Part shown: positions 10,691 to 32,249 of the stretch, piece by piece | How positions within the stretch are numbered: position 1 is the stretch's first letter | How the letters are laid out: every line of letters starts with the position of its first letter | NCBI GenBank assembly: GCA_051941275.1 | Contig: JAVEBF010000048.1 | Coordinates: 1-39,823 of the forward strand | Direction: 5' to 3' | Source of the DNA: Dirinaria sp. TL-2023a | Lineage: Eukaryota | Length of the DNA: 39,823 bases | Position numbers and translations under genes: made by a program | Notes under the pieces: model-generated | What the model was told of the DNA's origin: nothing | The model's input: only the letters and a program-made list of their open reading frames with translations | Databases searched by the model: none

Positions 10691-12168
10691 ATGGTACTTT
10701 CACATCTACTCCGCGATTTTTCCCCGCCTCCGGCCAAGTCTTCTGACTATGTCGAGCTAGTACCACTCGTAAAAGGGGGCATCGTCTGCGTTGCTATATG
10801 CCTGTCGATCACGACAGGCCTTTTCATACTGCGAATATGGGCAAGGCTTGGTGTCTTCAAACAGTGGATTCTAGAGGATTGTATGTTACTCCCGCCATAA
10901 ATCCCACTCCTCTGTTCTAAAGGAGGGTAGATATGTGCTGTGTCTCTTACGTTAGAGCCTCGCTCCCACGAACGTAAACAACATCTTAATTTAGCATCAG
11001 ATCGGCTTGATCATATACTTTGCGTTCATGACAGTTGCAATAGAAAGGTGTGGTCGTGTCCACAAGTGGGATTTGCCTTCACGAGAAGCATATAGTGCCA
11101 TCTACGTAAGTGGCCCTAACCTCGAACTTGAGTCCAGACTTTTGAACATCGCTTCTCTAGTGGTCGTATGCGGCTTCTATAGCATATGCTCCTGCTATGC
11201 TCTGTACAAAACTGACTGCCCTACTACTCTACCGTCGAGTATTCCTGCCACCCCGCTGGAGTATTTTCGACGTGATTCTCCGGATGTTCATGACGATTTC
11301 TTGTTTGTACTACATAAGCACGATCGTTGTTAGAATGTGGGAATGCACTCCAAGAGCAAAGATATGGAATAATTCCATCCAAGGGAATTGCATAAGTGCT
11401 GCTAGCCTCATCAACACTGATGGTGCTTTTAACACCATAAGTGATATCCTGCTCTTGCTACTGCCCGTCAAGGCTCTTCAAAAATTGCAAATGAAGACCA
11501 AAAGGAAGCTTGGCATTGCGCTAATTTCTACAGTTGGGCTGGTGTATGTTCTCTTTTCCACGTCCGCTTGTTGTATATTGCATTGCTCCCCGATTTCTAA
11601 AAATCTTTCAAAACGTCGCTAATGGTAATAAGTGCAATAACTTGTAGTATCGTGGGCTGGATTATACGAGCGCATAACAGTTCTAGTCCAGAGGAAACAT
11701 ACCATGACCCTAGGACTCTCTTTTTGGCGTACGTTGGGCTCATCATGTCATTTTCAAATACTGATAGGGGACAGTGGAGCAGAACTTTCTGCTGGTCTAG
11801 TCTGTGTCTGTCTCCCTACCATCCCTACATTGCTGCACTGTCAGTCGCCGAGCAGTCCAGGCAGCAAGCCGCTGGAAAGGCGCTCCCATCCTTGCCATCT
11901 GCGGACTTTTCCGCGCAGGCAACCGAGTAATATCAGCGATCAAGAGTCTTTGAATCAGGGAAATTCAGACTACCGAGGGGGGTTTCCTCAGGGCTGGGCC
12001 ATCGAATCGCTTCCAACGACTATTGTGACAGCTATCGAAGGGGGCAGCCCTCGCGGGATCCGTGACATTGGACCTGTGGATCTGGAAGCGAAGGACGACG
12101 AGTTCGTTCAAAGACCAGCTATCATGAAGACTGTGGTCGTCGAGCAGTCCAGTGGCCATTCCAGCTAG
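10691..12168 (+). CDS. PTH11-like / fungal rhodopsin-domain integral membrane protein (no CFEM domain), 6 exons, ~395 aa
   Basis: Exons 10691-10880, 10931-10950 (20-nt micro-exon), 11001-11105, 11161-11543, 11633-11728 and 11775-12168 give an open frame. It contains the family motifs LRIWAR..LEDY, K..LLLYRRVF, CTP..K.W....G.C, N..SD..LL.LP and E...G.VC.CLP. Confidence 0.8.
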
Positions 12169-12736
12169 CCGACTTAGTCCAGACATGGAAAAATGTGTTC
12201 CTGGACTTCTGTCAAGTGTGTTCTGACAGATCGGATATCCGAGTAATGTTCTTCGTATCCGCCTCACCACTCTTCTACCGTTCGATTGGGGTCTTCGTAT
12301 GGCAAGTATCGCGCTTTTCAAGTGCAAGGCAACACCAACTCATTATGATGAGTGCTGTATTCATCGCTGGAGAATGCCGGCTGTGCTTTCTGAGGATCTA
12401 CTCGACAATGAAATAGCGTTTGAGTATACTTTAAAACGGTAGCGTGGTCCGAAGGACATTTTACCCGCTAGAAACTAGCTGCGATGCAGAGTCCCATACT
12501 AGGATAAGCCGACGTGCGTCAGCCATTGCTCCGGTCGGAGGACACAGATGGGAACGATTGCGTATGATCACGTGCATGAGGGGCCGAAACTGAAACTAAG
12601 GTAAGCCAGGTGGCCTACAAGGCAGAGAACTTGAGCAATTGCCCTCTTCGGACAACGATGCTTGCAGTAGTCGCCCCAATAACAATTTGTGGAAGGTTGT
12701 AGTATCGCGTCGCTTTGTCTCTAGTCTGGCAAAAAG

Positions 12737-13270
12737 CAGGGCAGAGATAATGGTCCGCTCTGAAACGAACGCGATAAAAATGTTATTGTCTTTTGAAAAA
12801 GGAAAAGAATAAAAAAAGGTTCCCACTACCGCCACACCACCCTATTCTCCTGGCACACCACCCTTCCCCACTAACTGCTACTCATTCTCACGTGATAACG
12901 CATCCGACCTCTTTGATGCCTCGAGCTTAAGTCTATTGATCTCTCTTGCTCTAACAGAGTGCGAGTTTCAAGCCAACGACGGATTCACGAGATGACGATG
13001 AGATTGATTGACCATGAACGTTGTTGCGCCGTCAAATAGACAAATCGTTAAAGTAGATTGAAGATGTTAGAAAAAAAATTGAAGAGAAGATATTGATAAA
13101 TGAAAATAATGAGTGGGGAGAGTGGGTAACAAAAAAAATCAGACGAGAGCGACCAGTCTAAAGCTTCAGGGATTTGATCGACAGTATCACTATTATGCGA
13201 TGTGAAAAGATAAGCAATATTTTCAAGATTTTCTAAAAGAATCTAAGGCAAAACGACAGGGCAGAGATAA
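12737..13270. repeat. ~530-bp AT-rich segment bounded by a 14-bp direct repeat (CAGGGCAGAGATAA); probable degenerate mobile-element relic
   Basis: An identical 14-mer occurs at 12737-12750 and 13257-13270, each preceded by GGCAAAA. The start of the segment also matches 15937-16018. Confidence 0.45.
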
Positions 13271-13397
13271 ATTTTAACTAGGCATGCGAAGTGCAAACAC
13301 AGCAATGTTCGAAAAAAAGCTGCTTTTTTTCTTTTTTTCTTTTTCTTCTTTTTTAATTTTTCTTTTTTTTATATGGGGTGCTACTACTGCTAGGGAA

Positions 13398-13734
13398 TGC
13401 GCCAAGTGCATGGTGAAAAATCATAGCAGTAAAATGCTAGCGCCAAAAGCATAGGAAGAAGCATGTGACGATTCATAACAAAAGTCTTCATAATGAGCAG
13501 AAAAGAACGAATTAGATGAAGGTTTAATGGCTTTACGTTGAGTCATTTTTGCTTTTCGAGACTGGTTGGGATTCCGCCCATGCCTAGCATCTTGGCATGT
13601 TAGCGTGCGAGGGTGTATTTAAACTCACAATCCTACCAGCATTTTCGAACTTCAGCGTCATCAAATATGTCAATTTCCAACATATTCTAAGCCACATTCT
13701 TGCTGACTGAACCAATCTTGTCAGCGCGATCTTG
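13398..13734. repeat. Left arm (outer part) of a long imperfect inverted repeat
   Basis: 13398-13494 aligns to the reverse complement of 17773-17878, and 13495-13734 to the reverse complement of 17338-17593. For example, TTCAGCGTCATCAAATAT at 13651-13668 is the exact reverse complement of 17413-17430. Confidence 0.92.
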
Positions 13735-13887
13735 TCTCTGACGTCCAAACAAGTCTGTCACTTTTGCTCACATATACGATATCGCTCATCCTTATATCGC
13801 AATACGACGGACCGATAAGAGAGGCGCAGCCGGTCGAACGTGTCTAGGTGATCTACAAATAGTGATTTTTGTGCTCTGAGCGCACTC

Positions 13888-14805
13888 ATGGCTGAGTCTT
13901 TGAAGATCGATTCATCCTCGAGGGGTGGATATCTTGACAACACCCTAAGAGTCTTTGAACGTCACAAGCATCCTTTTGTCCTGGTGGGTACACTTGCAAA
14001 GAGATGGAGCGGCTGTGGGCATAATCCAACCTCGAAGATCGATGTGCTAGTACGCAGTTCAAGCCTGCTGCTGATTGTGGATGAGCTTATAGCCAGTAGT
14101 GACTGGGAGCTTCCAAGCGCCGACGAGCTTCAGGGCCTGCGGAATAATAATAGCGGGAAATCCGAAACCTGGCTGAAATTTGGCCACGAGCATATCCTTT
14201 TCCAATATCTACGTCTGTGGCCGGAAGAAGTGTATCATCTCTCATTGGAATGCGAGAAAATCGAAGTGCCCGGCATTTTCACCAAGCCCACTGATTTGAT
14301 GGAAGAAGAATACGATCGCGATCCTTACCATCGATTCGCGCTACCAACAAGGTCGAGGATACCAGAGTCTGAGCTGCTTCCGATTCCACCACTTCGAGCC
14401 AAATCCGATGGACAGGATTCTTGCATTTACATACCGAGCATCAAAGCACATTTGAATGCACTTCTACAGCAAAGAATTACAGAACTTATCACGGGGATAC
14501 CGAATGGTGGCGACCCTCGGGCCCAGCTACGTGATCTAATACGCTATCTCGTCCTAGATTGGAAACCTACAAGGAAGTGGATCCTAGATACCAAGATCGA
14601 ACCTCAGCTTCGAGAGACTATGGAACTCATATTTCGGGGCTTCACACGCAAGAAAGTTGCCCTGTGGGACAAAGAGCTCGGGAAGAGCGTCTTCGGTAAG
14701 ATGCCGTGGGAGCTAACTATCAGCAGAGAGATACACAGCACCTACGCGCCCGATGGTGTAGAAATTTCAGCCCAAGGAGTACCAGTCACTGATCTCGATA
14801 ATTAA
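13888..14805 (+). CDS. Hypothetical fungal protein, 305 aa, with a nucleotidyltransferase-fold-like N-terminus
   Basis: Long intronless ORF of normal composition within an AT-rich zone. The N-terminal PFVLVGTLAKRWSG..PTSKIDVLV resembles the hG..A...hG....T.DhDhhh signature of the Pol-beta NTase superfamily, with the first Asp replaced by Lys. The fold assignment is an inference. Confidence 0.7.
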   Translation: MAESLKIDSSSRGGYLDNTLRVFERHKHPFVLVGTLAKRWSGCGHNPTSKIDVLVRSSSLLLIVDELIASSDWELPSADELQGLRNNNSGKSETWLKFGHEHILFQYLRLWPEEVYHLSLECEKIEVPGIFTKPTDLMEEEYDRDPYHRFALPTRSRIPESELLPIPPLRAKSDGQDSCIYIPSIKAHLNALLQQRITELITGIPNGGDPRAQLRDLIRYLVLDWKPTRKWILDTKIEPQLRETMELIFRGFTRKKVALWDKELGKSVFGKMPWELTISREIHSTYAPDGVEISAQGVPVTDLDN

Positions 14806-15020
14806 CAAGTGTTGCGGCGGAAATAGCAGGCGGGTATCGGTTGTAGTAAATTGATAATTGATTGAGGTATGGCTTGCATTGAGAAGGATATCATGGTCCA
14901 CAGACAGTTCATGGTTTTGGTCTCGATTAGGTTTGACAAAAAAATTCAAAAGGAAAACCGACCTCCAATTTGTGGCCAGATAACAAGCGGTAACGCCGAC
15001 TTTTCTATTTATACAAGGCA

Positions 15021-15210
15021 GAAGAGAAAGGTGTAGTCGAGCTCTTCGTCTGTCGAGACCTTAAGCAGTATTGAAAGGATCAGGATCAAGCAAGTGAAGC
15101 AGGGCTTTGAGACATGAGCTGCCTAAAACTATCAGAAAATCTCGAGGACTCAAAAAAAAAAAAAATACTTATATTTATCGAGCCATGAATGCCAAGATTG
15201 GAGTGCAAGG
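15021..15210. repeat. Left arm (inner part) of the long imperfect inverted repeat
   Basis: Aligns to the reverse complement of 17151-17337. There is a 22-nt exact match, TCGAGCTCTTCGTCTGTCGAGA (15037-15058 versus 17299-17320). Confidence 0.95.
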
Positions 15211-15936
15211 TGACTTTTGCAGGAGGTACCTGAATTTTTTTTTATTTTTTATTTTTTTCTTCTTTCTTCTCGCAGGCATTCAACTTTCAATTTCCATTAC
15301 AGAGCACGAGCACCCGGGTACTTTCCTTTGTTCCTTTTCCTCTCTTGAATACACTGCACGGTGGTCCATGCTCTCATGGAAACTTTTAAATCCTTCTCCT
15401 GGTTTGATCAAAGGTTTCTTCCTGCATCTTCGCGTCCTCGGTTTGTTTTTCCTTTTTTCCTTTGTTTTGGAATTAAACAATTAAGCAAAGGATTCGTTGT
15501 TTCGGTGTATCTCACGCCACTACTCCGATTGCGTCGGAAAGAGGGAGACGTCGTAAGGTACATTCCCTTAGCACTCTCCCTTTCCCGAACATCACTTGGC
15601 GTTAAGATCACCACTGCTACACCGGCCCGTACGTCACGATAGATGTAGCCTAATTGGACTTTACAAACAAAAGCACGGCAGGAAATCTTTCACGAAAAAA
15701 TCCTGATTTTTTTCGACGGATTTGTTTGTCCTAGGCCGTTGGGGGGGGGGAGAGAAGGAAAAGGACTTTGTCGAGCAGTAATCATAAAAGCTGCTCAGGG
15801 AAGTGCGCTCGCTGCATCGGTTGCTTTTTGCGTTCGTATAAAAATGGCAGAGTACCCGTCAGCAAGACGAAAAGCGTTGATCGGGTCGAAAGTGAAAAAA
15901 AAAATGGGAAGAGAACAAGTGACGAGACGGGGCAAG

Positions 15937-16018
15937 TAATCGTCCGCTCTGAAACGCACGCTTTTACAAGTTCTATTTTTCTTTTGAATAAAAAGGGATC
16001 AAAAAAAAAGCTCAACTA
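15937..16018 (+). repeat. Diverged direct copy of 12748-12828
   Basis: TAATCGTCCGCTCTGAAACGCACGC here versus TAATGGTCCGCTCTGAAACGAACGC at 12748. Both are followed by CTTTTGAA, an A-run and ACTA. Confidence 0.75.
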
Positions 16019-16219
16019 AAAACGACCGGCGACCAAACGGTGATGCTGGGCCCATTCGGGCCAGCTTTCGAAAACCTGCCCACCCATCCCAAACGACGTT
16101 AAAATATTCATGAAAATGATGCATAGGCTCTCATCCCCCCAGCTCCTCCATCGCCATTTCCACCGCCTCCACCATAACCTCCAGCTCCTCCCCTCTTCAA
16201 GAAAAGATAATCGAAGCCC

Positions 16220-16672
16220 CTAGGCTTTCATCAGCCTGAGGAGAGGAGCCGCAGGTCCTCGAAGTCCCTTCCCGTCACCCTCTCTATCCAGCACTGTCTC
16301 GCAACTAATGCGCAGCAACTCCTGAAAATTGGTTGGCAACGAACCGCATTCCGGAACTGGATCACAGACGGGACTTTGGCGCAGGGACGCGCCGCCGCCG
16401 AGCTCGATGAACTCGATGCGGACTCGGAAATTCCCATGCAAGCATTGGATTGCCACGACCCGAGCTCTCCCAGAAGTATAGACTCCCCCTGGCCAAGGTT
16501 GATTGCCTCGTCCATAAAGAGGCCAAGCAGACGGGGTCGACATCTTTGGCTTTCCTGCTTGAACCTCCATGGGCGATGGTGGCCACTCCGCCAATAAAGA
16601 TGAAAATGAAGTTTGTGGCCGAGGTTGCGGTGTACTCGTACGAGTTGGCACGCTGATTTCGTATGCGGACAT
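16220..16672 (-). CDS. Possible small hypothetical protein or decayed gene in the loop of the inverted repeat
   Basis: ATG-initiated 150-codon ORF in a GC-richer island between AT-rich flanks. No recognisable motif. Confidence 0.25.
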   Translation of the reverse strand: MSAYEISVPTRTSTPQPRPQTSFSSLLAEWPPSPMEVQAGKPKMSTPSAWPLYGRGNQPWPGGVYTSGRARVVAIQCLHGNFRVRIEFIELGGGASLRQSPVCDPVPECGSLPTNFQELLRISCETVLDREGDGKGLRGPAAPLLRLMKA

Positions 16673-17150
16673 TCATGTTTGCTGAACAGGAGAGAGAATA
16701 GTCATGACGATGATGTAGACGATAAATGAAGCCGAAAGATGAGGCCGCAAAGACTGAGAAACGGTCAGTGCTCAGTACTCGACTCGACTGTCCGGAGTCG
16801 AGCTGCACTTACGCCGCTGTTCAAGAGACAGTGTGGAATTGTAAAGATACTGTCTAATTAATTTAGAATAGCTGCAACCACCAGTCAGTCCAATCTCCAT
16901 AGTCTCCAGGAACCGAAAACATTAATTACCGATGCTCGTTGAAAAATGCACTGAGAGAGAAAGATGGGAGAATTTGCGCCAGTGGGCATGATATATATCG
17001 GTCTGGATATTAGAATGGGAAAGAGCAAGTTGGGGGGGGCGCGACTGCAGGAGCACAAGGAAGGCGCCATTGTAGAGTCAGTCGCTGGAAATGGAATTAA
17101 ATATGAATGTCTCTGCCGGTCGCAGTCGCTATATGAACACTCTGATAAAG

Positions 17151-17878
17151 CCTGCACTCCAATCTTCGCATCCATGACTCGATCAACGAACACTCATTTC
17201 TTTTTGAATCCTCAAGATTCTCTATAGTTTCAGAGACTTCATGTCTCGAAACTCTGCTTCACTTGCTCTGATCCTAATCTTTCAAATACTGCTTGAGATC
17301 TCGACAGACGAAGAGCTCGAATCACATCTTTCTCTTCAAAAATCGCGCTGACAAAATTGTGATTCAGTCCGCAAGAATGAGACTTAAAAAAAGATATGTT
17401 GAAAATCGATATATATTTGATGACGCTGAAAATTCGAAAATGCTGATAAATTTTGTGAAGTTTAAATATATATATATATACACTCTCGCGCAAAATGCTA
17501 AACAAGTTTCAAAAAAGTCAAAATGGACTCATCAGCGCGAAGGCCATTGAGATCTTCTTCATTGAAGTCTTCCTTTTTCTTTTTCTGCTGCTCAACAGAC
17601 AGCGCCCAAATTCGCTTCACATGCTGGGATTTGAAATTTTTAAGATGGAGCGATAACATACCAGACTGAATTATATATATCAAAATTTTGAGAGTCTTTT
17701 TAAATTTTTCAATGTGAAATCGCGTTGGAACTTTTTCCATTGAAGTAACGAATTCGAGATGCGCAGCTAAGAATTATAAAGATTTTTTATTATGGATTTT
17801 CACATGCTTCTTTTCTATGCTTTTGGCACTGGCATTTTTACTTCTGTGACTTTGCACCATCACCATGGACTTGTCGCA
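17151..17878. repeat. Right arm of the long imperfect inverted repeat (AT-richer, lacks the ORF, has its own ~180-bp extra segment at 17594-17772)
   Basis: Its reverse complement is colinear with 13398-13734 joined directly to 15021-15210. Confidence 0.92.
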
Positions 17879-18402
17879 GTAATGTTCTCTTTTCATATGC
17901 TGAGGATCATGACGACGATTGCACCCAGATTTCCCGGGGGATTATTAGAGTCATCGTAGCTTATTTATTTTAAAAATCGATCTTAGATAGTGCTAATATA
18001 CTTAACCCACCACCAATCTGATTCATAACATCTTTCTTCGCTGCGTCCATCTTTCGCTGATACGTCGCGCAACTCATAATCATTACTAAATTTTTTTTCT
18101 CTTTCGCTACATGATAGATTTCGAAAGATGCGCGTTGCGCAGTTTTGAAATAAGTTTCTCCGGTTGGACAATTCTAAGATCGACGGATGATAAATCTTTT
18201 TCGTGGCGCGACATTTAGAATTCTACTGCGCAAAAAATAATAAGGGTTTTTTTGTGCTAGATAACTTTGAAAGTATTTTTTGTAGTGGAAGGTGTGAATT
18301 TCTTCTATCGTGAACTGGAATTGGGAATGGAATCGTAATTGGGGATGGAAATGGAAAGAGTGGGTTTGGATCGTAAGGAGTAAAGTAAATGTAGGATGTA
18401 GA

Positions 18403-18426
18403 TTTTTTTTTTTTTTTTTTTTTTTT
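18403..18426. repeat. Poly(T) tract of 24 nt in low-complexity intergenic DNA downstream of URA2
   Basis: Read directly. Confidence 0.9.
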
Positions 18427-18905
18427 AAGAAAGAGAGATAAAATAGAGAATATGAACTTTTTTTCTTGGAGGCTGAGATATTTTGAACCCCTGCTGAGAG
18501 GTTTCAACAAGGTAAAGTGTGGTTAGGATGATTCATTTTGAGCATTTCCCTCTCTCTCGTTCTGAAAGGACATAGGAGGTATTTCCATTCCGTAGATTTA
18601 ACTTTTTTTTTTTCCCTACTGTTTGCCTCCTCCAAGATATAAAAATGATGTACTGAGTGAGGGGCAAAAAATTCAATAACAAAGGGGACTGACTAGATAG
18701 ATAGACTTTTTTGTTACCTTTCTCTACGAGACAGAACTTTTCTTCTTTCCTCCCCTTCTACAGCCTCCGGTCCACACCCCAGCCTCTTCGCTTTGGCCAC
18801 GCCTCTCCTATCTCATTTTCACCGGCTAGGAAAGAGAGAAAACCAGGGAAAGAGAGAGAGAGAAAAAAACAAAAGTGGCCGAGAAATCCCTCTTCCTCCG
18901 CATTC

Positions 18906-21900
18906 TCACGGCGCCAACACCAGTGCAAGCAGCGCCATCCGACAATACAGCCCGTAGCGCATCTGCCTGAAATAGGCAGCACGGGGATCATCATCCACTT
19001 CATCGGCCAACTCCTCGTTCCTCGGCAACGGATGCATGACAATCATCTTCGCCTTCGCATGCTGCATCACCGCATTGTTGATCCTATACCCTCCCCGCAA
19101 CCGTTCGTACTCCTCCAAATCCTCAAACCTCTCCTTTTGCAGCCTCGTGCAGTAAAGTACATCGCTGCTCGCGATGATCTCTTCGGTGAGGTACTCGGAT
19201 TCATGCAAGAGCTGCCCGGAGCGGACGAGATGCTGGTGGATCTCCGGCGGGATGCAGAGGGATTGCGGGGAAACGAGGGAGATTTGCACGTCGTAGTGGA
19301 AGAGCAGATGGATTAGGGAGTGGACGGTGCGGCCGTAGCGCAGGTCGCCCACGAACGTGATTGTTTTCCCGTTCACGGTGCTGAGCTCTTCGCGGATGGT
19401 GAAGAGGTCGAGGAAGGCCTGGGTGGGGTGTTCGACGCTGCCGTTGCCGCCGTTGATGATGGGCACGGGAGAATATTTTGCGGCGGTCGCGGCGCTGGCC
19501 GGATCTGGGTGCCGCAGCACGATGGCGTCGCTGTAGCAGCCTAGCGTCCGGATTGTATCTTGCAGGGACTCGCCCTTCTGGGTGCTCGAGTGGGTTTGAG
19601 ATATGGGTACCGTACGGCCGCCGAGGAGTTGCATCGCGGCGTCGAACGAGGCCGAGGTTCGGGTTGAGGCTTCGTAAAACATGGTTGTGAGGACGCGGCC
19701 TTTGAGGATGTCGGAGACGGTTTGGCTTTGGATCCCGAGATGCATGTGGTGCGCTACTGTGAATAGATGGTGCAGATCGCTCCGTGCGAATTGGGAGACG
19801 GAGAGGATGTGCCGCTGCTTGAAAGGGGAGTGAGCTAGCAATTCAAGCAGGGTTCGGGACACTGATGGCGGTTGAGAAAACAAAGGAGGGCCAAGTTCTT
19901 TTAGACTTGGTGGTGGTAATGCAATTGGGGGCTGGACGGTTTGGGTGTCTACTTGACGAAGTCGGCTCTGTGGTCGTGAGGCTTGTAAGGATTGACGTCC
20001 AGTATCAGGGTTTGGATAAGGGGTCGGTGAGGAAGAAGCTTTGCTAGACGGTGACGAAAGAGCGTGGATAGAATGGCCTGACACATCTGTCCCATGTGGG
20101 ACGTCTGAGATGGTTCGACCGTCGAGACAGGCTGTCCTGTCCAGGAAAGTAACTCTTTGTACAGATCCGCGTACGGTGGTACCGACGAAGGGGGACCAAG
20201 CCGAAGGCGCTTGGAAGACGTACTGCCGATCGATATCAATCTCCACAGAAGTAATCGCCTGATCGTGGAGCTCAAAGATCTCCTTCGGCTTGTCATAAAG
20301 TCGCTGGACAATCCCATCAATGGTAAGCCGACCGTCTGACACAGCGGTAAATAGCAACGGTAAAGTCTCTGCGATACCAACAGTAGGATCAGGCACTTCA
20401 TGGGCTTCAAGGGCGACATGGAAAGGGATGCTCCCTATCGAGAACACGTCTATTGCCTCCAGGTGGTTCCACAATGCTTTTTGATCTTTGACAGTGGGCA
20501 GTGCTGTGCACTTGGGGTAGTCCTCTTGCGTCAGGAATAGCGAATACACAGCAACATCACAGGTGACTTTCAACCCCTTTGATTTCCCCAGTGAAATGAG
20601 ATTGATGTCATCTTCCGTACTGACGCTGGTAACATGCAGCTTGCGGTTATGTAGGCTTGCCAGCAGGAGCACAGAAGCTAGGTCTGTAGTCTTAGCGTCT
20701 GTGATGATGGGCTTGTTGACAGGCCATGATGAAAAGTGTGATGTGATTGTCGCCACCTTACTGATGTTCTCGCACAAATGATTGAATGGCAGGGATAGCG
20801 AGCCGACTTCAGCGGTAACCTTGCTAATGATATCTGCGTTGGTAGCATTGGCCGCGACCGAGAAGTTGTAATCGCAAAAGGCTCCTAGTAAGCTATTCTG
20901 CTGAGCTACCTTCAACGAAGCCACGTTGGTTATTGAAGAATGAAGTCCCAATGGCATAATTCGAAGCATGCTGAAACCGGAGGCAATGGACGCCTGTGTG
21001 ATAGCGCGGAAGTCACTGTTGCATTTGGTCGCTAAACCCGGTACGAAAGCTGCGACATTGATTAGGCCTGGAAGAACCACGGTACGGTGACTGTTCTGAT
21101 AGTCGATGGTCTGGATCCCGAACTCATATCGTCTAGCGAGCGCTTCGATCAGCAATTTCGCATTCTTCACATTTGTCACCAGTGGGGTTTGATAGTCGAC
21201 TGCCATCCTGCGGGTGCGGTAGCCTTGGCTAACATAGTTCGCCGGTCGCCGGTACTGATTGCTTGAAGGTAGATTGATGTAGAGATCGATGAGATTATTA
21301 GCCAGGTGTTGCGTGAGAGAGTACTCGGATTTCTGATGTTGTTGTTCACTGTCCAATATCTCCAGATATTTTACCGGTATCTTGTGCTCTTGAATGTAAT
21401 CTGCGGTACCTGCCGTGGCAAAGATACAGTAACCAAGCCGATGGAGTTTCTCAATTGATGGCAACATTTCCATCTTGTCCTTGAAAGACCCGATCGATAC
21501 AAGGATGTTTTTCTTCGGCAGTCGAAAGCCAGTGGACATCAAAGCCTTAATGTATGCTTCGTATCTGTCACGGCCGAAGCAAGCGACCTCTCCAGTCGAA
21601 GCCATTTCTACGCCCAAGACTGGATCAGCACCAGACAGCCTTGAAAAGGAGAATTGAGGCACTTTGACCCCGACATAGTCCTTGGGAATGTCGATCGGCG
21701 GATACGCTGTGAGCGGAACACCCATTATCGCCCGCGTGGCCAGAGCAATGAGATCGACTCCCATCACCTTTGAAACAAAGGGAAAGGACCTTGAAGCACG
21801 GACATTGCATTCAATCACTTTGATCTCGTTATCTTTCGCGATGAATTGGATATTGAACGGCCCCGTCACTTTAAGTTCTTCGCCAATCTTGCGCGTGGCT

Positions 21901-26459: not shown

Positions 26460-29400
26460 TCATATGGCAGTCCCGATAGTGTCGAAGGAAGCCTCGCCAC
26501 CGTCTCCCTTGGTTCCACAATCGCAGCCATATTGCATGCGATACTGGTATGGCGCGATGCCTTCGAGTTGCTTCAGCGCCTCTTGGCTCGCTTTCACCTT
26601 GGCATTCTTTCCAGAACTCGCCTCTCCGTCCGCAATGATCTGGTCGTGAATCATAACAACAGCGACATTGCGAGCAAAGCCGCCGTCGAATGCGGGGATC
26701 TCATTCGCCATGAGGCGATAATTGGTACAACCGAAGGACAACGTCAGGAGGTTGTGAAGATGAGTCTGTAAGGCGCTCGTCAGGATGCCTCCTACGTGAG
26801 AGCAGAGTGGTATAGCGCGCTTAGATGCACTTACCGTGGGATGGTTATTGGCAAAGGTGTCGTAGACGTTCATGTCTTCGAAGAACCAGCGGACATGCTC
26901 CTCGAAGAACCGCTCCACCTGGCCGTAATCGTATTCCGAATCGACAAACAGCGCTCCAACGTAGGATTCGATCACATCAGAGAGAGACTGCAGGTCGTGA
27001 GAAGCAATCTCGACACGTAGAAGACTCGCGCTTACCTTCGGGGGATTTTTGGTCAAGGTCCAATAATCGGGAGCACCGTTGGACTCTTTCTCCGCGTCAT
27101 TGGCCTCAGCTACGAATTCGCGGACCTGAACCTCGATCACTGCGCCACCGCATCTCAAGTGCTTGTGAAACCCTAGCTTGACGGCCAATGCTGCGAGGAA
27201 TTTATTGGAGACCATTGCCATCTGCTTTCGTTAGCTTTACGACTTCATTCAGACGTTTGAGGCCTACTTTGTGCTCAGTAAGCCACTGAGGGTCTCGATC
27301 AGGATGACGATGGAAGAGAAAATTGATGCAGGCCATGTCAAGTAGCGCGTCTCCCAAAAACTCCAAGCGTTGGTAGGAAGGAATCTTCTCGTACATGGAG
27401 GGATAAGATGGGTGCATAAATGCAGACCTCAACAATCGCGGATATCGGAATCTGTAATTGTGTTCTTTGGCTACTTTGGCAGCGAGATCGAGCTGCGACG
27501 CCGTCGCCGCAGCCAATTGCCAACTAGGCTTTGTATAAAGCGGATAGTATTCAGCCCAGGTGGTGACATCATGATCGCTCTTGGAGACCAGAGATGAGAC
27601 TGCCGTAACTGCCATGTCCATATTACCTGCATCTCTGTATGACAGCAAAGCTCCTCCAATCATTGCTTCACAAACGTCAGCGATGGTCTTGTCGCCAAGT
27701 CGGTGCTTTTGCACTTCCGTGCCGGTTTTCTTGTGCCCCTTCCCCTCGAGAAGCTTGATACCCTCAGGATACCATGTGCGCCTGTTGATGTCAGTGATGC
27801 ATGAACTTCCTCGAGAGCGAAACGTACCTAGAAAAGCCTTGAGTACGGATATATTCGTAGAGCTTCTTGTTCAGAGCTACGCTGAACAGGTTCTTGTTAC
27901 AGATCATCTCCATCCTTCGAACATGATACTCGAACTCATCGTTCTCCGGACACTTAGAAAACAGTGATATTGATGTTGCCATTTTGAGAAAACAATCGCC
28001 GATGAATTCTAGTCGCTCGTAGTTTTTGCCCATGCCTCGCTGGACGTGGATCTGCTCGCTACGGTGTTCTTCTGTGTTGTCCGAATCTTTCGTCATGGCT
28101 TCTAGGGCCAGATCTGGCCGAACCGTGATGCCAATTAAGTCGCAAGCTTCCAGAGCAATTAGGTATGACTCAATCCTTGTTAGGATAGCCGAAAACAGAT
28201 AGCCCATGGAGGCGACAGAGATTGGAAGCTGCTATGATTAGTCAAAATTGCTTGAGGTATATCTTCAACTTACCGTGGAGATCTTCAGCGGCTCTGGGCA
28301 TACATAGGCTGTGGTCTTGACAGCCGTTTCTTTCTCCGTATAATCATCAAGCCAGTTAAGCCGATGAAGTATTCTCTCAGCCAGGATTACAGGCTGCTCG
28401 TCATTCCAGGTAGCCTTTGCTCGAGATTTCGAGAACAAGCTAACACTATAGTCAAGTATGCTGTTCATGTATTTGTGGGATGCAGCATCTGCCGGAACAG
28501 GATCGAGTGGCTTCAGGCCCGGCATCACCGCGACAGAGAAAAATCGCCTGCCTCCGTCCCATCTGTCCACCAGGTATCGATTTGCTAGCTCGGAGTTTAG
28601 GGTCTTTGGCGTCCACTTCAAGTCGGAATCATTGTCGTGTTCGTGAACGAAATCAAGCGTTGGCCAATCAATGAGCATTTCCGGTGTTTCGTTGTCCTTA
28701 TGGAACAATTGACGGTTGAGTAATGGAGCGATCCAGTAGGACATGTCCGGAATGTTATCTTCAAACTTCTTGTTGAAGATGTCCTTATAAATGCACAAAG
28801 TGAAGTCATTAAGCTTCCTAAGTAATAAATCTGTCATTGGGAGGCTTTTCGCGATCGAAGTACAGGTAACATAAGATTGCTTGTCAATCTTCAGGTACAG
28901 CAGTATTGGCGGAAAGTCTGGCATTGGCGTGCGCGTTAATAATGCCAGCGGTTGGGAGGGCCGGCCAAGGTTCTCTGGCAGCTCCAATTGAAGCACGGTC
29001 ATGAACAGCTCATTTGGAGTCGTGCCACGAGTGTGCTCCCAAATACTCGGCTTAGTCTTCATTGCGTACATATCAGTCTTATTCATGTTGAGGGCAAGGT
29101 GGGCGTTCCGCATCGCTGGTAGGTATTTTTTGATCGTAGGCATCAAATTACTGTCCAAATGGTTGCCCTGCCGTAGGAGTAGGCACATTTCGAATGCAGC
29201 CGACCTCTTTGCTATGGCTTTCTTGCTCGATGGCTTCCCAATTGCAGAACGGATAGGAGAACCTTCTGGTAGCATGACTTCGCAGACATAGCGTTTGCTC
29301 TCCGCTGTCATGAGATATGAGGGTTGCAATGTAACATCTTCATGATGTGGCTGAGTATTATCAGCTCATATTTCCCATCATGCATGAAGGATCACTTACT

Positions 29401-31572
29401 AAACAAGTAACGAAATGTTGAAGTATGACCAAAGCCGAAGTGTAAGTCAATCTAGCACCTGTTTCTGGATCGGTATATCGCCTCATTGATTTCTCCTTTG
29501 CCAAAACAGTGTCAAGGTTATAGTCATCGCCCTGAAGTAACCTATCTGCTGGTAAAGCCTCGCAAAATCGTCGCATAACGCCTTCTCCTTGACGTACGTC
29601 ATGGATGGCTTGTAGGTCTATTTTGTTGCCTGACTCGATGAAATGAACGTAGGTTGAATTTCTGTGACGCGCGCGACCTCTGCTTTGAATGTACTGAATG
29701 AGAGTATCGTATAAGTCGAATCTAAAGACTTTGTTACAGTCAGGAATATCCAAGCCTTCTTCGGCAATGGATGTGGCGAAAAGGCAGTTGATTTCCCCAT
29801 TCCTGAATTTTTGAAGCGTGAGGACCTGCTCTCGAAAGCTGATTTTGACATCACCTGCGTCGCCATATCTAGTGCCAATAAGCAGGCCGAGGCGGAGGTG
29901 AGGACTGCCAATTCGAGCAAAAAGCTTTGTGAGAACTCTTGCAGTGTATCTTCTTCGGACAAAGACGATGGATTTGGACGTATCAGACCGTTCATACTCC
30001 AAATCAAGATATCTTTTGAGCAAAAGCACTTTAGGGCTTATGCTGTTACCAACAGATGATGGCGGCGGAAATTGCCATCCTTTGATGAACTCCTGCGCCT
30101 GTCGAATGCGTTGTATGTCGGCATCAAATTGTTCAACTGGGCGAGGCTCCCGCTCGGCTGACCATAGCCGCTCAGTCGTCCGTTCGATCTTGCGCGCTTG
30201 CTCGTCTTCTAAGGCCAGCTCCCAGATATGGTCAGCACACCACTCGCCAAGCTGGGACGTAGCGTGGTGCGATTTCGCAATGGTTCGCTTCGTAGCTTCT
30301 AAGTCCCCGAATAGAATTTTCAGCTGAGCACAGAGTGGTGTAGTGTAGGGAGCTTCTAGGCGTGCATAGGGCGCGAGAGCCTCCTGCGGGCGACTGACTG
30401 ACATTCGAAGTAAGGAAAGATCCGCGGTGGTGGCTATTTGGCAATGCAGTATTGCTTCGAGCTCCCTAGGCCGTTGTTACCGATTGACAAAGCCTCTTGC
30501 CTGAAAGACTTACTTCGCTGCTTCGACGACATCTTGCCGCGCATCAACCGGAGACGCGGTCATACCAAAGACTTTAGGTCGCTTGCTGATATTGTTTTCG
30601 GCAATATAGAAGTCCTTGATGATTCTATGTCGAGATTAGTAATTGCTACGGAAGATAGAAGATGCAATCAAACCGGGCATAAGCATGGTTCTTCTTTGCA
30701 TGATGTGCCTCGTCAAAGATAAGGAGGTTGATCTGGTCAAGAGCTATGAAGGAATGCATTAGACACTGGTAGAGGATTTCTGCCGTGCAAACAATGACCA
30801 TATTTTCTCGGAAGTGCTTCTCCCAGGTCCCTTTATCCCACAAATCGCACCCCATCTCGCCACAGAACCGCTCAATTTTGTGGTCCAGGTTGCACTCTAG
30901 CACTGCGAATTGCTGAAAGACTAGCGTAACAGAATCAACGAGGAAGAAGGAGATTCTCGGCTTCTTGCCAATCAGGCGATCCTCGAGCTCCTGATCTAAC
31001 ATGTGTCGTAATAGCAGTACTGCTATCAATGTCTTGCCTGACCCTGTATCAAGCACCGCAATGATGTTCTGCTTCTTCGCCTTCTCAAACAATTCGACTT
31101 GATAGTCTCTCGGATCAGTTATGATGACATTTGGCTCTTGCTTGGCCATGAGTTGTCGTATAGTGAGCGTTTCTTCGTCGGCGTTCTGAATTTGTGTTTT
31201 GACTTGCTCTTTGGTTACCTTCTCAGCACGTTGTGACAGCCAGGACGAGAACTTCATATTCTGCGCTCTCCTGCGTTCGGATACTTTTGGCGTCCCGGGT
31301 CCAGCGCCATTGTTCCAGTCACTGTCATCGCTATCGCTATCAGAAGACAGTTGAACGTCAAGGCCTCCAACATCTGCACTCGAAACATCTTCGTCACGGG
31401 ATTTGTTAGGAAGGAGGGTGGCATGATTGGCAAGCTCCATGCCTGGCTTGGTTTTTTGTTCTATGGACCCCGATAACGAAGCGTTTTGGAGATTTCTGGG
31501 CGTTAAAGGAACTTCTAATGGAGCGTCTTGAAAGGCTGGCCCCGTATCCTGGGACAGAAAGACTGCAGCCAT
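26460..31572 (-). CDS. dcl1: Dicer-like protein 1 (DEAH helicase, dimerisation domain, PAZ-like region, two RNase III domains, C-terminal dsRBD), 9 exons, ~1570 aa
   Basis: Exons 31572-30674, 30624-30514, 30465-29400, 29350-28274, 28228-27828, 27781-27268, 27221-27036, 26987-26835 and 26765-26460 sum to 4713 nt. Motifs: [33 protein letters not shown] and QRLEFLGD. The C-terminal C..H..CxC zinc motif is typical of the fungal Dcr1/Dcl1 clade. Confidence 0.95.
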
Positions 31573-32249
31573 GTTCCTTAGGGTAACATGGGCTTGGTAG
31601 ACATATTTATGTCTTGAGTTGAGTTTGCGGAATGAAGCATGAACTAAAAGTGGAATGGATCAGAAGCGAAGAGTGTAGAATCCATCTACACTTCAAAGAA
31701 TCTAAAGAACGAAAAGAAGGCACGGTGACAAGCTCTCACTGGAATCAAGAGACTGATGACTAAGGACTATGAGCTTTCAAGACTTTGGCGGATCACAGTT
31801 ATCAAGTGTTGGCGTAAGTATTCATTTATCACCTGTGGTATTGGAGCAGAGGAAAGTGACATGATGGGGTTGGGGAAGGTTTGGTAGTAGAATAGCCGGT
31901 TTGGCTGTGATGTACGACAGCTGCACGCAAACAATTCGGGTGAATCTGTAGGCAGTGAAACCCGAGCGCGGAAGTGATCCGGCTCTGGTGCTGTTGTCTT
32001 GATGATGATGAAGGCATTTAAGGGGAACCCCAAGGGTCACTCTTCTTGTAGATTAGACCAATAAGTAGATACTGCGCTATATAAGATTTAATATCCAGGG
32101 TCTTCGGCAACGCGTTCCAGACAGACCGGTCTGGACTCTTGCGGAGAAACATAACAATGATCTAGTCGGAGCTTCTTCCGCAACAATAACGTTCAAATCT
32201 GTGCTACCTTCCAAACCTCGACAAAAGACGTATATTAATATTCTAAGCA

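Follow-up and report, generated by a model that had tools for sequence, protein, structure and literature searches.

A pair of long, diverged inverted arms lies next to URA2 in a contig of Dirinaria sp. TL-2023a (JAVEBF010000048.1, assembly GCA_051941275.1, positions 1 to 39,823 of the forward strand; this whole stretch of 39,823 nucleotides is called the window here). The initial annotation of the window placed the arms at 13398..17878 and offered three readings: a foldback or long terminal inverted repeat (TIR) element resembling Mutator-like elements (MULEs), two copies of a dispersed element, or a local inverted duplication. Which of these is it? Our analysis supports the local inverted duplication, of a one-off composite that was copied as a unit. 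The best reading is an inverted duplication of long terminal repeat (LTR) debris and unique DNA, without a function of its own; as a feature of the genome it is real but ordinary. That the arms are an old, one-off local inverted duplication, by whatever mechanism, we consider highly probable.

Geometry of the inverted arms

Self-BLASTN of the whole window produced an anti-diagonal and bore out the three colinear inverted blocks of the initial annotation, with matches of 13398-13494 to 17878-17773 (78%, E 3e-15), 13616-13733 to 17468-17339 (79%, E 1e-20) and 15021-15207 to 17337-17153 (80%, E 4e-39). In the middle block, the proximal half (13495-13615 with 17595-17469) was too weak for BLAST; in an anchored global alignment it scored 0 versus a shuffled maximum of -11, and none of 200 shuffles reached its score. 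Four global alignments of the arms gave 420 matches in 518 ungapped columns (earlier estimate by eye: ~530 aligned bp at roughly 75-80%), and the reported exact runs of 18 nt and 22 nt were both found. With a tighter, conservative cut of 464 ungapped columns the identity is 0.83 and the Kimura two-parameter (K2P) distance 0.20. Because the arms differ by ~17-20%, we infer that a foldback chimera of the assembly is an unlikely source.

A suspected inward extension to 15335/17050 proved to be at chance level, as dinucleotide shuffles scored as well in 34/200 and 114/200 cases. Outward, an extension to 13371/17899 is plausible because both ends lie in the same LTR family (LTR-A, below). Beyond these points only a low-complexity match is left (6/200 shuffles), and the right-hand LTR continues to 18030 with no counterpart on the left. 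The arms are interrupted on the left by a single-copy piece of 1286 bp (13735-15020) and on the right by one of 179 bp (17594-17772). The spacer measures 1.94 kb (15211-17150), as expected from the earlier ~1.9 kb, and a Pfam scan of 34 frames matched no transposase, recombinase or reverse transcriptase family, again in line with the first description. From left to right the features are:

12739..13155, plus strand: direct repeat D, copy 1; homology over ~105 bp, interrupted at 12818-13130 by a miniature inverted-repeat transposable element (MITE)
13324..13370, plus strand: T-rich tract directly outside the left copy; a 12-nt word recurs in the tract at 15235
13371..13480, plus strand: block A, left; homology to the LTR-A family begins mid-LTR and covers just its 3' ~110 bp, with ...CATAACA as the end
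13481..13564, plus strand: linker B1, left; opens with the 3' target-duplication copy of LTR-A (4/5 versus the right 5' flank)
13565..13682, plus strand: core of block B, left; decayed copy of the 112-bp LTR of a family resembling TRIMs (terminal-repeat retrotransposons in miniature), its own target-site duplication (TSD) not recognisable in the alignment
13683..13734, plus strand: post-B linker, left
13735..15020, plus strand: segment X, without a counterpart in the right copy and present once in the genome; neither TIR nor TSD seen
13888..14805, plus strand: open reading frame 1 (ORF1), intact, 305 aa
15021..15207, plus strand: block C, left; found elsewhere only at 17153-17337
15211..17150: spacer, without self-similarity to the arms or X
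15235..15270, plus strand: T-rich tract ~25 bp past the inner end of the left copy
15930..16035, plus strand: direct repeat D, copy 2
16220..16676, minus strand: frameshifted pseudogene with a nucleotidyltransferase (NTase)-like N-terminal motif (weak assignment)
17153..17337, minus strand: block C, right; joined directly to the post-B linker with no X between
17338..17593, minus strand: right post-B linker, 5'-eroded TRIM LTR (about 17397-17500) and linker B1
17594..17772, minus strand: 179-bp piece, in the right copy only, single copy
17788..18030, minus strand: complete 243-bp solo LTR-A (TGTTATG...CCATAATA), of which only the 3' ~110 bp is duplicated

Two LTR families and unique DNA in one composite

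Each arm is a mosaic of part of an LTR-A, a 112-bp TRIM LTR, and linkers plus block C. The genome searched was the 27.7-Mb assembly in 3105 contigs; in so fragmented an assembly the searches give lower bounds, and one of them missed the partner of repeat D (~100 bp, 80%).

Block A is part of a dispersed LTR-like family of ~290 bp with 23 matches in the genome. Members of this family, TGTTATGG...CCATAACA, are 274-347 bp long and have TG...CA ends with a short inverted repeat; among the 10 copies with both ends (12 examined), the 5-bp flanks match at 5/5 in two and at 4/5 in another two. The family thus combines the three marks of a solo LTR, namely TG...CA ends, a short inverted repeat and a 5-bp TSD, and we read LTR-A as a solo-LTR family, with no gag/pol interior tied to it. 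Its alignment comprised 19 non-window copies, leaving out the window matches and two partial repeats on contig C4. The 5' flank of copy L024 equals the 3' flank of copy L015, a possible LTR-A pair on separate contigs. On C4 (L017:1433-1853, G000:C4), a 421-bp palindrome consists of a full LTR-A copy and the inverted 3' part of another (76%), and it sits within a separate MITE-type inverted repeat of 64 bp. This outer repeat was considered as a second foldback case and rejected, being another dispersed MITE-type end (6 matches).

One LTR-A copy, L026, is heavily C>T-mutated (23 of its 26 changes). The C>T changes stand mostly in CpC context (15/23 in L026, 18/36 in L028), and this differs from the CpA context that is usual in repeat-induced point mutation (RIP). 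RIP has been reported in lichen fungi (PMC13486527, excerpt).

Block B holds the 112-bp LTR of the TRIM-like family, which has 25 genome matches, 22 of them aligned. In two elements the repeats are still paired. The one on C652 (L047/L050) has 112-bp repeats that are 96% alike, measures 863 bp overall and carries the TSD ACTAG on both sides; the one on C2436 (L056/L057) has identical repeats and measures 954 bp. The paired repeats enclose 640-730 bp, and both elements have a shared motif after the 5' repeat and a purine tract before the second. Their interiors differ, each being internally repetitive. One element has identical LTRs, so activity of the family was recent. Single copies have flanks matching at 5/5 in five and at 4/5 in three of the 20 with the end found (22 examined). 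With terminal direct repeats in the range of 100-250 bp, a total length below 1 kb, a 5-bp TSD and a polypurine tract, the family fits the definition of TRIMs (PMC6934838, excerpt), whereas the window holds only single decayed LTRs.

As for the other parts of the arms, linkers, block C, segment X, the 179-bp piece and the junctions were found nowhere else in the assembly. Linker B1 had no further genomic match, three matches to the 22-mer of block C with 3 mismatches each showed no extension of similarity, and a 17-nt post-B pattern occurs in both arms and in one 1-mismatch match without extended similarity. Block C was also considered as a coding relic and rejected, as its right frame, protein-like and 50 aa long, matched only itself, had no Pfam match and is closed in the left copy. 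The proposal of two copies of a dispersed element consequently holds for the pieces, A and B lying in two LTR-type families, and fails for the composite A-B-C, which is not dispersed.

The two window copies of A are sisters with an ultrafast bootstrap (UFBoot) support of 90 among 18 sequences (16 other copies and the window pair, three partial copies having been dropped). The same is true of B, with UFBoot 97 among 21 sequences (19 other copies and the window pair; three partial copies were dropped and one was shortened by trimming). Moreover, the A-B copies of the window share a deletion and the A-to-linker junction. Sister copies with a common deletion and a common A-B junction argue that both arms derive from one composite. 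The right copies lean towards RIP-type changes (C>T/G>A 15 vs 5 in B). RIP between the arms was rejected, as the left copies have no such lean (4 vs 9 in B, 8 vs 5 in A) and the expected symmetry is absent.

Origin of the second copy

Which arm is the original? LTR-A is complete on the right (17788-18030, 243 bp), and the left arm has only its last ~110 bp. The 5' flank of the right LTR-A is AAAGA; AAAAA follows its 3' end, and in the left arm AAAGT stands at this place, both words agreeing with the 5' flank at 4/5, as in a decayed 5-bp target duplication. The complete LTR-A with its 4/5 flanks is moderate evidence for the right as the original insertion site and for a duplication that ends inside the LTR. 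Such an end is arbitrary and therefore unlike the terminus of a transposon. Later loss of the 5' part of LTR-A on the left is an alternative to this mid-LTR end.

The left copy is bracketed by the T tracts at 13324 and 15235. Tracts as extreme as these (30-mers with at least 26 T or A) number three in the window versus six in 257 kb of 98 other loci, and the simplest reading of the two is one tract split by an insertion. The third extreme tract, a pure T run of ~25 nt at 18403-18428, lies between the right LTR and the URA2 stop.

We propose that the arms arose in three steps. In the first, which is well supported, unique DNA ~0.9 kb downstream of URA2 would have gained a solo LTR-A and a TRIM LTR. 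In the second, the stretch from inside LTR-A to the inner end of block C would have been copied, inverted, into a T-rich tract ~2 kb off; duplication as a unit is well supported, and for its mechanism we infer a break in the tract that was repaired by template switching to nearby DNA, splitting the tract (a templated insertion of the type of MMBIR, microhomology-mediated break-induced replication, or of SDSA, synthesis-dependent strand annealing). In the third, the copies would have diverged by ~0.2 substitutions per site and undergone large insertions or deletions, leaving the 179-bp piece on the right only and the 1.29-kb piece with ORF1 on the left only; either ORF1 was part of what was copied and the donor lost it afterwards, or it entered the left copy at a later time. 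We give this particular route, templated insertion into a break in the T tract followed by decay, about an even chance.

Templated inverted insertions at breaks have been reported in yeast (PMC11724301, excerpt), and inverted duplications are described as footprints of staggered breaks or of repair by break-induced replication (BIR) or MMBIR (PMC7584159, section 25, excerpt). The arms resemble such events (both sources) in being a non-recurrent inverted copy of neighbouring DNA with arbitrary ends and low-complexity junctions. They differ in being fixed, old (K2P 0.20) and eroded.

Several points weigh against the templated insertion or against the evidence behind it. The yeast insertions are mostly 5-34 bp (same excerpt), far below the 0.6-2 kb needed here. 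The TSD argument consists of 4/5 matches of short A-rich words, the coincidence of the T tracts was spotted after the fact, and donor, acceptor and pre-insertion state are all reconstructed from one sequence. The model leaves direct repeat D unexplained and does not predict the convergent arrangement of ORF1 and the spacer gene that is hinted at by P0006, a homologue of ORF1 (below). The sister grouping of the B copies joins two long branches, which may have inflated its support, and in raw identity the left B copy is nearer to some family members (0.80) than to the right copy (0.72). The genome searches, as lower bounds over 3105 contigs, have a limit near 100 bp at 80%. Finally, ORF1 has no excess of C>T/G>A: such a change is needed for 2 of its 18 derived residues, and the reverse for 4-5. 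As some repeats of this genome, such as L026, do carry this bias, its absence from ORF1 indicates a gene that was probably duplicated only briefly or never.

The main rival is a staggered-break microinversion of the ~1.9-kb spacer, in which the far breakpoint received a second copy of the URA2-adjacent block (P M d Q -> P d' M' d Q) and an earlier such inversion may have left D as its footprint. Staggered breaks leave inverted duplicates where an inversion ends, and a 2-kb microinversion flanked by inverted copies of 534-540 bp has been described (PMC7584159, excerpt). In that source the Drosophila O7 microinversion, with its ~0.5-kb inverted duplicates around a ~2-kb segment, is a close likeness; the resemblance is one of the arms, inversion of the spacer in the window being an assumption. 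This origin would account for a duplication that ends mid-LTR, would leave the convergence of ORF1 and the spacer gene unchanged, an arrangement that the tail of P0006 suggests elsewhere, and would make D ancestrally an inverted pair. However, only one end would be duplicated here, and T tracts flank one copy on both sides. Under a microinversion, two of the three breaks must each have met an extreme T/A tract independently, at a background of ~1 per 43 kb, where one split tract explains both. The P0006 hint comes from 1 of 128 proteins, the spacer gene is present in 0 of 10 related ORF1 loci, and a literature search for the mechanism in fungi found no paper combining all terms. We regard this origin as unlikely, if less so than those that follow.

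It is also conceivable that a composite mobile unit, consisting of part of LTR-A, the TRIM LTR and C, inserted twice to give the arms, or that they are a donor and its retro- or rolling-circle copy, the unit's other copies having been lost or not assembled. The window copies are indeed monophyletic, and a fragmented assembly may miss copies. An A-rich target plus a tail would also yield T runs on both sides; in one form, a copy made by the machinery of a long interspersed nuclear element (LINE), the left T tract would be a poly(A) tail read on the other strand. Yet no third copy of C, linkers or junctions was found, the outer end of the donor lies mid-LTR rather than at an element terminus, and a retrocopy would require a transcript antisense to both LTRs and to ORF1. 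Inspected by eye, the junctions fit neither Helitron ends nor splice boundaries, and both candidates were rejected, the second being that X or the 179-bp piece is a spliced intron. A mobile unit of this kind seems improbable to us.

Direct repeat D enters into another alternative, a remnant inverted triplication (TRP/INV), or a tandem duplication with one copy inverted, that was cut by reciprocal deletions. The two copies of D are 82% identical ungapped when the MITE is left out (0/200 shuffles), and a 15-mer at their core occurs in the genome only at the two D sites. With D as the direct part and the arms as the inverted part, a single event would give both at similar divergence (82% and 83% ungapped), and TRP/INVs arise spontaneously in Aspergillus flavus, where, however, they are transient and not fixed (10.1101/2025.01.14.632981, excerpt). 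The additional homologies sought for such an event were all at chance level: 15211-15930 versus reversed 16006-17150 (114/200 shuffles), 13128-13392 versus 16000-16400 (67/200) and 12400-12738 versus 15400-15929 (110/200). Direct-inverted-direct copies with palindromic junctions are thus not seen in the window, where later deletion could hide homologies, and we think this origin very improbable.

The least favoured alternative, to which we assign only a marginal chance, is a non-autonomous long-TIR element (Pack-MULE- or foldback-like) with TIRs made of LTR debris and with ORF1 and the spacer gene as cargo. Foldback elements of the FB/Galileo type have long TIRs with internal tandem repeats and are repeated across the genome; the window arms hold no internal repeat family among direct repeats of at least 18 nt, and their specific DNA is not dispersed. 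Pack-MULEs require TIRs that have intact ends and form a family, and a TSD of 9-11 bp (PMC3310237, excerpt). The arms resemble those described there in being inverted, within 100-500 bp and with genes inside, and differ in lacking shared termini, a dispersed TIR family and a visible 9-11-bp TSD, as well as in being built of LTR pieces and interrupted by a gene. In favour of an element one may cite the length, colinearity and inversion of the arms, the two lineage-patchy genes inside, the occurrence of ORF1 relatives in at least three unrelated contexts, and further palindromic and MITE-type elements in the genome. Against it, the outer termini do not match, since homology on the left starts at ~13371, mid-LTR, while the right-hand LTR runs its full length to 18030, and C, linkers and junctions occur in the window only. 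In 56-nt windows at two candidate end pairs the longest exact word shared was 6 nt and of low complexity (a decayed TSD with mismatches would escape this comparison). ORF1 lies within an arm and not between the arms, and arm-like DNA was found at 0 of 10 related ORF1 loci. The MULE-like interpretation of the initial annotation is thus not supported, and on the features tested the arms are not a member of the MULE or foldback families.

Taken as an old inverted duplication, the arms have little importance as they stand. They illustrate that what looks like a diverged 'foldback' in a repeat-rich fungal genome may be no more than a duplication of nested solo LTRs. They also raise the possibility that copied DNA landed in a T tract beside a conserved gene block, which is one way for accessory genes to change position.

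ORF1, the spacer pseudogene and the surrounding locus

The first description overlooked ORF1, an intact gene within the left arm that is single copy in the genome. ORF1 has four close relatives at 47-73% and 122 cluster representatives at E<=0.001, the nearest relative being P0002 (70%). Two of 10 ORF1 relatives come from Ikaeria and Ptychographa, which we take to be lichen-type ascomycetes. No Pfam match was obtained for ORF1, and an alignment of 50 members gave only two unrelated weak matches in the same database.

The structural model of ORF1 (predicted local distance difference test, pLDDT, 90.7) has MenT1 as its best match (Z 10.6, rmsd 4.5, 166 residues, 13% identity), followed by TM1012, ANT(2'')-Ia and the Paracoccidioides NTase-like protein 5uvd at Z 7-9. 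By entry titles the nine best structural matches (Z 6.8-10.6) are of NTase fold, one being titled antitoxin, and the top Foldseek matches (E 6e-4) agree. ORF1 is thus predicted to have a nucleotidyltransferase fold of the pol-beta type, a shared fold that in itself shows no function. The predicted protein differs from these NTases in being longer, with extra insertions, in lacking a Pfam match and in having Lys in place of the first motif acid. NTases carry the motif hG[GS]...[DE]h[DE], with acidic metal ligands. In ORF1, G34 and D52 are present and E113 is near-invariant (47 of 49 family members). Position 50 is Lys here, Glu in 7/7 close relatives covering the site and Glu or Asp in 23/49 wider ones; because Lys50 replaces the Glu of all seven close relatives, this copy may be impaired.

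Ten related ORF1 loci, representing about three independent contexts, revealed no conserved neighbour of the family, such as the adjacent partner that neutralises toxicity in a MenT/DUF1814 toxin-antitoxin system, and contained neither the arms nor the spacer gene. The relatives at L074-L081 match only residues 10-156, seem broken or truncated, and adjoin changing small repeats. We regard ORF1 as a more useful lead than the arms, with at least 122 clusters and a confidently predicted NTase fold nearest to bacterial MenT1 that no Pfam model covers. A literature search linking nucleotidyltransferase, fungi, Starship and cargo found no paper, a result that concerns this search only. One might go further and see in ORF1 a MenT-like NTase family without a name in lichen-type ascomycetes, forming with a second NTase-like gene a convergent pair (possibly toxin and antidote) and an accessory cassette with the LTR-debris arms as TIRs; to this we would attach a very small probability.

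The spacer gene lies on the minus strand at about 16220-16676 and is frameshifted, with broken paralogue fragments on contigs C65 and C823. A motif seen by eye and weak leads faintly suggest that the pseudogene is NTase-like. No homologue was found at E<=0.001 among 11 candidates; the best atlas score was 0.86, and DUF6036 was only a lead at 0.84. A paralogous relation to ORF1 found no support (hhalign probability 3%, DNA alignment at chance level). In P0006, residues 328-364 at the tail match the antisense frame of the pseudogene at window positions 16518-16622 (score 72, 0/300 shuffles, one of the 128 proteins tested), a hint that the ORF1 and spacer-gene families may be adjacent and convergent in that species. 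Next to the C-terminal paralogue fragment there is a ~480-bp palindrome (L070:1844-2322, G000:C823; 77%), probably another MITE.

In agreement with the initial annotation, the arms lie between a URA2-QNG1 block and accessory-type genes: the Pfam scan gave URA2-Dicer-TAP42-FAD synthetase-like-UBA2-like-QNG1 on one side, and rhodopsin, hydrolase and GRDP-like on the other. To the right, the Pfam scan of the 34 frames and a search with URA2 identified URA2 (stop at 18906), Dicer, TAP42, a PAPS-reductase-domain gene, a UBA2-like gene and a queuosine-salvage gene, and to the left Pfam identified a fungal rhodopsin-domain gene, an alpha/beta hydrolase and a GRDP-like gene. Dicer occupies 26460-31659 on the minus strand, directly upstream of URA2. 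Among the relatives of URA2, P0133 matches at 88% over the searched region. ARAGORN predicted no tRNA in the region of the arms, Rfam gave no RNA gene at E<=1 over 11500-19000, and four pieces of D and the arms folded no better than shuffles (z -0.7 to +0.5). Nested or inverted repeats are common in this genome, with an inverted match at E<=1e-6 in 19 of 91 fetched loci (overlapping loci unmerged).

The MITE at 12818-13130 belongs to a family of high copy number (scoring of 64 candidates gave 68 matches, from 40 of them) with GG...CC ends and, in several copies, 8-bp AT-rich TSDs. The window copy sits in an A run of D and has lost most of its right TIR internally; a 14-nt word from just upstream of D copy 1 recurs at about 13259. 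In another fungus, an inverted repeat that lies just upstream of an ORF1 relative (L077-L079) bears a weak similarity to the left end of this MITE, 76% over 58 bp.

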